A stretch of 64,000 bases of DNA from contig NC_086097.1 of NCBI RefSeq assembly GCF_963921235.1, forward strand, positions 127,288,001-127,352,000, given 5' to 3'. Shown here piece after piece: positions 22,391 to 23,744 of this stretch. The stretch's first letter is position 1; each line of letters starts with the position of its first letter. The position numbers were made by a program, and so were the translations under genes. The notes beneath the pieces were generated by a model. It searched no databases and was not told where the DNA came from. It saw nothing but the letters and a program-made list of their open reading frames with translations. This DNA comes from Mobula hypostoma (taxonomy: Eukaryota).

Positions 22391-23117
22391 TAACATGAAG
22401 CACTTGGTTTTGTGTCCAAATCCTGTAATTGTCACCTGATAGGTGTTGGAAACATATTCGGCGATAACATTCTAAGGAGAGCAGGGTCAATACCAAAGTG
22501 AAAAATATACAGACTAAAATAGAAATTGGGTGGTTGACTTGGGCAACGCTAGCCAAATAACGACCTTTGGCAGTGTTTCCTTCTATGCTTCTGGCTGCTA
22601 ATTCCAGTATGTGTGAAGCCTACAGTGCTGGACCTGAGGCACCAAGCTTACCAAATGTTCCAGCTTCAGTGTCATTGTTTAATTTTACATGCTCATGTGA
22701 AACCCAAGACCCACTGAGATCTTAAATTACCTGAAGTTTGGTAATTTTTCATTGCCAACACTTTGCAGAAATTAGTTAGGACAGTTGCTTTGGGCTAACA
22801 TTTCTGTTGAAAGATTGCTTTGGTGCTTACATTATTTCTGCTGTTGCATTTAACATAGAGTAGTACAGAAACAGGCCCTTCAGCCCATAATGTCTGAGCC
22901 AAGCAAATTAAATTATCCTTTATTCCTGCTCCATTCCTTGCATATTCAGGTGCCTCTAAATCTCTTAACATCACTGTCTGTGTTTTTGACTAGCATCTAA
23001 TTTTGCACATGTCTTTGAGGTTTTATTAAGTTGTATTAGTAGATTGAAGCTTTCTGTAAATCAAACTTCATTTTGTGGAGCTCTGTGGCTAAAGGATGCA
23101 TTTGTTATACTCCTTGT

Positions 23118-23537
23118 TCGGTTCTGTTCAGATCCCGCAACCCTTTTTATGGGTTGTAGGGGCGCTTTCGTGTGTCATAGGCAAGTGAGGCCTAGCGGTG
23201 CGCATCCCTCTCCAGGCCTGGACCACAGCCAGTGTCCTCCAACTTGGTGGCTCGCCCTGGTCTCGAGCGTACGGCTATTGTAGTTCGTCGGGGAACTCAT
23301 CTGCCCTGGCTGGTGGCTTCATGGATGAGATCCTTTGCCCAGTGGTGCTGTGGTAACACCACCCCCTCACATGGTTTAGCCTGGCAGCTGAAGCGGTGTA
23401 TTGGGCTGTGCCACTTGGAGGCATACGTGAGAGAGTTAGGAGATGGATGAGGACCAGTGATACCTGTCCACCATGCGAGGTAGAGTACAGTTGCCAACAT
23501 CAAAGGTATCACCTCTATCCAGGGCCCCCTACACCCC
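23118..23537 (-). mobile_element. 420-bp non-autonomous retroelement (RTE-type) with 11-bp TSD
   Basis: ATACTCCTTGT at 23107-23117 and 23538-23548; GC/CpG-rich interior; no recognisable protein; shares a motif with 2023-2521. Confidence 0.75.
23364..23537 (-). ncRNA. HDV-like self-cleaving ribozyme (predicted, partly decayed) at the element 5' end
   Basis: P1 GGGGTGT(23537-23531)/ACAGCCC(23409-23403), 6 of 7 pairs; P2 CTCTCACGT/ATGTGAGGG; P3 GCC/GGC with 7-nt L3 TCCAAGT; J4/2 GCTAA (C at 23379); the P1.1 partner is AA instead of GG. Confidence 0.6.
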
Positions 23538-23646
23538 ATACTCCTTGTAACATAGGTTTAACCATTCATAGAGTTGTACAGTCTGGAAAAAGGCCATTCA
23601 GGCCAACTGGCCCAACCTAGATGCCTGACTAGAATAAATCCCATTC

Positions 23647-23744
23647 AAGCAACACACATCAAAGTTGCTGGTGAACGCAGCAGGCCAGGCAGCATCTGTA
23701 GGAAGAGGTGCAGTCGACATTTCAGGCCGAGACCCTTCGTCAGG
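23647..23744 (-). mobile_element. Penelope-like pLTR 3' fragment carrying a minimal hammerhead motif (23711-23744)
   Basis: Minus strand CCTGACGAAGGGTCTCGGCCTGAAATGTCGACTG; near-identical to 32409-32504. Confidence 0.75.

Follow-up and report, generated by a model that had tools for sequence, protein, structure and literature searches.

An old bipartite copy of RTE-type LINE ends headed by a predicted HDV-like ribozyme

The 420-bp insertion found on the minus strand of the window (the whole 64,000-nucleotide stretch of DNA analysed here) is very probably an old, damaged and non-autonomous copy of the two ends of an RTE-type LINE, whose own HDV-like ribozyme, predicted in its first ~175 nt, likely freed the RNA just before the first base of the element (G1) for copying by the LINE protein. 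Sequence comparisons place the element among bipartite LINE derivatives that arose by internal deletion, and not among SINEs with an independent head. The original prediction of a SINE-like element is corrected accordingly, as both ends match one LINE and the open reading frame (ORF) has been deleted, while its proposal of an RTE-type LINE as partner is supported by the endonuclease and reverse transcriptase (APE + RT) architecture and by the matching ends. Because the element is an internally deleted LINE derivative, the putative ribozyme would be the LINE's own 5′ end.

Anatomy of the window copy

As had been recognized from the start, the insertion (23118-23537, minus strand) lies between identical 11-bp repeats, ATACTCCTTGT being present at both 23107-23117 and 23538-23548, with 420 bp between them. 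Read on the minus strand, it displays the order of an HDV nested double pseudoknot, each helix named in the original prediction occurring at its expected place, with P1 paired at 6/7 positions:

23538..23548, unstranded: target-site duplication by the element 5′ end, same as 23107-23117; directly adjoins G1 with no base between
23531..23537, minus strand: P1 5′ strand, pairing with 23403-23409; copies start here; compensatory changes in sister lineages
23537, minus strand: G1, predicted cleavage site and first base of the element
23435..23530, minus strand: J1/2, ~96 nt, a predicted long irregular stem bringing P1 and P2 together
23424..23434, minus strand: P2 5′ strand; terminal pair broken in the window copy, double changes in families B and C
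23422-23420 / 23419-23413 / 23412-23410, minus strand: P3 / L3 (7 nt) / P3′
23409-23403, minus strand: P1′ (P1 3′ strand), 6/7 pairs, one mismatch
23402-23401, minus strand: P1.1 position, AA in the window copy and GG in the family majority
23381..23396, minus strand: P4 hairpin, 2/5 pairs broken in the window copy
23374..23380, minus strand: J4/2, in which 23379 is the predicted catalytic C; C in 31/33 aligned sequences
23363..23373, minus strand: P2 3′ strand (P2′)
23170..23362, minus strand: remainder of the LINE 5′ leader, stopping just before the LINE main AUG region; runs into the endonuclease ORF in L031, L033, L034 and L099
23118..23169, minus strand: deletion junction (GAAA), then the last ~40 nt of the LINE and a short tail of 5-nt units; agrees with 20 LINE copies at their 3′ terminus save for a 2-nt insertion
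23107..23117, unstranded: target-site duplication by the element 3′ tail

The position of the J4/2 C (23379) is confirmed, and so is the crippled state attributed to this copy, in which one mismatch has appeared in P1 and both P1.1 pairs, the last P2 pair and two of the five P4 pairs are gone. Its longest ATG frame comprises 67 codons, and this copy is likely inactive, both as a ribozyme and as an element, as far as its damage allows prediction. Nothing suggests that it has acquired a function. The window revealed no host gene either, Pfam searches on 148 of its 197 stop-free frames (at least 75 codons) having returned mobile-element domains and one sub-threshold match only.

The parent LINE and the bipartite origin of the element

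The short element consists of the first ~367 nt and the last ~40 nt of a 3.3-kb endonuclease/reverse transcriptase LINE of the same genome. Three of 30 matches (L018, L029 and L030) run past ~340-367 into the endonuclease reading frame, and L031 and L033 hold the same 5′ 338-367 nt as the short element, followed by the endonuclease ORF; L033 goes on, with later insertions, through the reverse transcriptase to a 3′ end like that of the short element. A whole copy of this family-A LINE (L234) measures 3342 nt from the G1 region to the tail. At the other extremity, the alignment of 20 LINE 3′ ends identifies the final stretch of the short element (~40 nt) as the LINE terminus, save for the 2-nt insertion. 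The tail is built of a 5-nt unit in short family A versus a 6-nt unit in the LINE-A ends, and the exact driver subfamily of short family A is not among the 20 LINE-A ends examined, whose tail unit and 2-nt site differ. Tail microsatellites differ between LINE and miniature in both known pairs (6- versus 5-nt unit in A, 5- versus 3-nt in B). The three LINE-A copies L018, L029 and L030 (G000:C64:9.03-9.10 Mb) also have their upstream flank in common, and derive from segmental duplication within this region, not from separate insertions.

The LINE pieces match the Pfam domains Exo_endo_phos and RVT_1, and the best database relatives of the LINE are 71-75% identical in the RT, most of the full-length ones being single APE + RT proteins of ~1020 aa. 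With its single APE + RT ORF, its length of ~3.3 kb and its microsatellite tail, the driver LINE has the features by which RTE elements are recognized, and is assigned to the RTE type on this architecture, length and tail. Atlas neighbours of the LINE protein include a "Craniofacial development protein 2" cluster, which we take to be linked to RTE. The passages of PMC6007223 on animal RTE insertions describe a target-site duplication beginning with A, a T at -1, and a T-rich stretch near -10; among 19 junctions, A comes first in 10, T occupies -1 in 12 and -12 in 13, and the T share of positions -13 to -8 (0.40) barely exceeds that of the adjoining windows (0.34 and 0.38).

Could the element nevertheless be a Pol III SINE of the classical type, its head derived from a small RNA, or its fold a chance pseudoknot? 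One 9-mer resembling a B box (position 271 in the majority line) points to a SINE. Against this stand the absence from the element of an A box, of a tRNA gene and of any Rfam head (a tRNA/7SL/5S-type head was looked for and not found), the fact that its entire 5′ part is LINE leader, and the covariation of its helices between lineages (see below), so that this alternative is largely refuted and barely credible.

Copies of family A, their 5′ ends and a probable route of mobilization

Word-seeded searches of the genome (3.48 Gb, 200 contigs), in which copy numbers are lower bounds, returned 332 candidate relatives of the window element; 40 were scored, all 40 with E<=1e-80 and 77-83% identity, and 30 were fetched. 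Their flanks are unrelated and similarity sets in at G1, and the copies represent independent insertions with a common junction, target-site duplications and a repeat tail, in agreement with the multi-copy non-coding retroelement family that had been proposed. The copies are only 82-90% identical to the majority line, indicating that family A is old. In addition, contigs of run X2, which carries another organism label, lead from unique flanking sequence on either side into the element; since they contain the same flank-element joins, the insertion predates the split from the run X2 organism. One of these X2 contigs has deletions in J1/2. Run X1, presumed to be RNA, had no reads covering the element, which does not count as evidence on its expression. 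A very high-copy 95-bp repeat fragment located beside the element (window 23648-23742) is absent from the matching X2 contig, and is a younger insertion.

The clustering of 5′ ends at G1 that had been anticipated was assessed on 30 copies chosen by their 3′ 173 nt only (the window copy included, and 19 loci shared with the first set): 21/30 start within 3 nt of G1 and 27/30 within 12 nt, the corresponding numbers being 6 and 9 among the 11 new loci. When LINE copies were retrieved by their 3′ end and ~4.2 kb was fetched for each, 1/20 extended as far as the leader, some of the others being interrupted and not truncated. Duplications scoring at least 8 were found in 12/33 copies versus 1/165 mismatched flank pairs. 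Families A and B together provided 19 well-defined junctions, with duplications of 8-15 bp; these end at G1 in 11 cases, and in 6 they include one or two bases from the start of the element.

The most likely course of transcription, cleavage, mobilization and decay would start with a master copy transcribed as part of a longer RNA, from which self-cleavage would leave a 5′-OH end at G1. The LINE endonuclease/RT would then recognize the retained 3′ end and prime reverse transcription at the nick (target-primed), giving rise to the 8-15-bp duplications, and the copies would subsequently decay neutrally.

A dual system, as in L1Tc/NARTc, can also be considered, in which the leader would in addition be an internal Pol II promoter at or near G1, the ribozyme trimming read-through RNA or serving LINE translation. 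Such a system would alter the claim that the family is promoter-independent, but the element would keep its identity. Clustering of 5′ ends at G1 would equally result from an internal promoter with its start at +1, and the miniatures keep ~190 nt past the ribozyme, more than cleavage needs, in which RTE loci of other origin show ~80% conservation. Precedents exist as well, since the relevant part of PMC3383444 describes Pr77 of L1Tc/NARTc as promoter and ribozyme in the same 77 nt, and Kojima, in the passages of PMC5786205 concerned, regards bipartite LINEs as Pol II transcripts. On the other side, a review (PMC6765202) states, in the part bearing on this point, that promoters of their own are missing from RTE and baggins elements with such ribozymes. 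The junctions themselves weigh slightly in the same direction. A copied cap might leave an extra G before the first element base, and none was seen between the duplication and G1 in the 19 junctions of families A and B defined by their target-site duplications. On balance, we consider a dual system rather unlikely, and retain release by self-cleavage of a longer transcript as the preferred route.

The HDV-type fold and its covariation

HDV-like cores have an L3 that starts with UCC and carries a G at its position 6, and a J4/2 with the catalytic C, and these features are all found here, the J4/2 C in 31/33 sequences. The family majority presents a complete core (P1 7/7, P2 of 11 bp, P3, 7-nt L3, P1.1 CC:GG, 5-bp P4 and GCUAA), in which the P1 pairing (7/7) and the P1.1 GG lost from the window copy are restored, as foreseen for the consensus. 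The majority line built from 27 aligned copies of the short type passed a strict HDV descriptor, compared with 0/170 shuffled controls, these being shuffles of other upstream regions and not of the element. The descriptor was passed by none of 47 single upstream regions of related LINEs (17 metagenome and 30 own-genome, B copies included), because these regions are decayed, have one base more in front of P3, or have an enlarged L3. A covariance model recovered 3/51 metagenome loci and a second element of the window. A comparison with Rfam HDV-like models had been suggested, and Rfam returned no HDV-family match at gathering score or at E<=10, a result that the ~96-nt J1/2 may explain. Over 33 sequences, 86% of the cells of the core helices are paired, and the middle P3 pair is C-G in 16/33 and G-C in 13/33.

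Sister lineages were sought because copies within one family decay neutrally and cannot show covariation; indeed, decay only is observed within family A. LINE lineage B, found by a protein search of the genome, has a leader ~84% identical to that of A. Six helix positions separate the A and B majorities. Together they make up three double changes (P1, G-C to A-U; P3, C-G to G-C; P2 end, C-G to G-C, the last requiring a one-base alignment shift, with a one-base insertion adjoining), and no change is left uncompensated; the other core differences sit at unpaired positions. By a rough count, the chance of six changes falling into three pairs is about 1e-4. Family C and metagenome locus L161 add one double change in P2 and one in P1, bringing those seen over A, B, C and L161 to two in P1, two in P2 and one in P3, with none in P1.1 and a single-sided change in P4. 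Of the helices proposed for a covariation test (P1, P2, P3 and P4), the first three show covariation between lineages. The covariation score (0.182 versus 0.131+/-0.008, 0/500 shuffles) is overstated since the rows are related and kin are counted repeatedly, and its honest unit is about five independent double changes. The P1 changes of the metagenome locus L109 were dropped as covariation, as they overlap its own target-site duplication. Modelled in this way, an HDV-type ribozyme fold of ~175 nt is predicted at the 5′ end of the LINE and of its miniature.

The J1/2 region gives a different picture. The perfect 9-bp stem to which the original prediction had drawn attention is real in the window copy but private to it, two of its nine pairs forming in only 7/32 and 6/33 aligned sequences. 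No covariation was detected over this stem (278/500 shuffles), and it was rejected as a family structure on both grounds, the rarity of its pairs and this lack of covariation. An alternative long stem is 90.9% paired over 33 sequences, without covariation excess, and single-strand folding of J1/2 is significant in 1/4 copies only. This alternative stem and the extended P2 resemble in design drz-Agam-2-1, as far as the corresponding part of PMC4908430 describes it.

Sister miniatures

LINE-B has also produced a miniature (L036 and L236-L255; 444 nt plus tail), made in L036 of the 5′ 390 nt and the 3′ 58 nt of its LINE, with 1023 candidates. Twenty fetched copies are 93-99% identical to their majority, 15/20 start within 3 nt of G1, and duplications were found in 7/20 copies versus 0/100 controls. 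This miniature arose independently of that of family A and is younger. A third short family, C, counts 2724 candidates, of which 40 were scored, and has a complete core.

These families bear on whether the ribozyme is functional in the parent LINE only, being a passenger in the miniature whose cleavage would not be needed for spread. The location of the compensatory changes, which lie between LINE lineages while decay prevails inside family A, is compatible with such a passenger. It fits less well with the independently born A and B miniatures both having an intact core and starting at G1, nor with the complete core of the third family. We hold this alternative to be improbable, and a ribozyme also acting in the miniatures is preferred.

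Family C is represented in the window by an element at 2360-~2545 on the minus strand, extending on to ~2030, through which the family was found; its L3 is widened by a hairpin, and it has lost the P1 5′ strand. In front of P1, 7/11 other aligned copies carry a near-duplicate of their first 9 nt, and the true 5′ end of family C may lie 9 nt further up.

Relation to known elements

According to the passages of Kojima (2018, PMC5786205) on the subject, bipartite ORF-less LINE derivatives come from RTE, Ingi, Vingi and R2 only, the RTE examples named being RTE-N2_Lch (coelacanth), RTESINE1/2, MAR4_MD, WALLSI3 and Bov-A, and their kept 5′ end is tied there to self-cleaving ribozymes predicted in RTE. 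Like RTE-N2_Lch (5′ 214 bp + 3′ 70 bp), the present element joins RTE ends by an internal deletion (~367 + ~40). Unlike those miniatures, whose fold is not displayed in the same passages, its HDV core is resolved and supported by covariation.

Other likenesses are found outside RTE. The Drosophila R2 SIDEs and R2/R1 hybrid SIDEs similarly combine a 5′ HDV-like ribozyme having a large J1/2 with a LINE 3′ end, no ORF, and compensatory changes (P1-P4 in the SIDEs), and the portion of PMC3414825 concerned reports self-cleavage of R2 SIDEs in vitro; in contrast to these elements, described there as rare and confined to 28S rDNA, the present family is dispersed, with hundreds of candidates and an APE-type driver. 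In NARTc/RIME (L1Tc/ingi clade), as treated in part of PMC3383444, +1 is likewise the ribozyme cleavage site (predicted here) and both ends are common with the LINE, whereas NARTc belongs to trypanosomes and has a 77-nt ribozyme and a proven internal promoter, compared with a predicted ribozyme of ~175 nt in this study. With drz-Agam-2-1, the ribozyme shares (predicted) cleavage at the first P1 nucleotide, a long base-paired J1/2 and a P2 of 11-12 bp; in the relevant section of PMC4908430, the activity of drz-Agam-2-1 is measured, where ours is predicted, and is sped up by the structured J1/2 and the extended P2.

The design of a ribozyme-headed miniature was thus already known (R2 SIDEs, NARTc, bipartite RTE elements), cleavage having been demonstrated for the first two, and the present family appears, from its sequence features as tested here, to conform to it. 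No published description of the family itself was found in the mostly open-access literature that was searched. The covariation and the mapping of 5′ ends provide sequence-level support for bipartite RTE derivatives keeping a working HDV-like ribozyme, which is mostly a prediction in print. At least three short ribozyme-headed families in one genome, with and without a widened L3, offer a natural series for tests of the ribozyme and of RTE cis-elements, and the same two ends, 5′ and 3′, serve in gene-insertion tools derived from RTE-1, as outlined in part of PMC13708176.

Leader conservation and pairing between LINE ends

The part of the leader that follows the ribozyme (23170-23362) is ~80% identical to the leaders of the RTE loci L109 and L149, which come from unrelated sources. 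A short hairpin located before the main AUG (window 23181-23201 region) is kept, by eye, in L109, L116, L117, L124, L149 and L157, with paired changes in L117 and L149, and is retained even where the ribozyme has diverged.

Pairing between the two LINE ends was examined in five lineages, using the 26-32 nt after the conserved leader hairpin and the 37 nt that lead up to the 3′ terminal motif. In every lineage, the best partner of the 5′ segment is the 3′ segment of that lineage (5/5 rows), and the LINE-B 5′ segment pairs better with the 3′ segment of A than does A's own. Compared with shuffles, the pairing is clear in B (0/500), L109 (7/500) and L116 (2/500), marginal in L157 (49/500), and not better than chance in family A (170/500). 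A lineage-specific long-range helix between the ends is plausible on these few lineages, its signal being weak in family A.

It is possible, if doubtful, that RTE-type LINE RNAs spawn miniatures in this manner, the ribozyme fixing the 5′ end, a lineage-specific helix clamping the start-codon region to the 3′ terminus, and the ORF forming a loop that could be dropped in one step. The B junction would then lie in the loop of the helix, and the ORF of A would have been replaced by a GAAA loop at the helix base. If true, this would explain why RTE is among only four clades with ORF-less bipartite elements, a restriction left unexplained in the passages of Kojima 2018 dealing with it. No description of such a helix was found within the same literature scope as above. 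In two B miniatures, the junction does fall inside a loop that a long helix closes (z -2.9 and -3.5), and the junction fold is not significant in three A copies.

Locus L109 (790-4240), on a metagenome contig, is a full-length RTE-type element. Its leader and that of family A are 82% identical, a high value that may be due to horizontal transfer. The last five bases of the 10-bp duplication of L109 are those predicted as its P1 5′ strand, an overlap that suggests a microhomology junction or a P1 contributed by the target.
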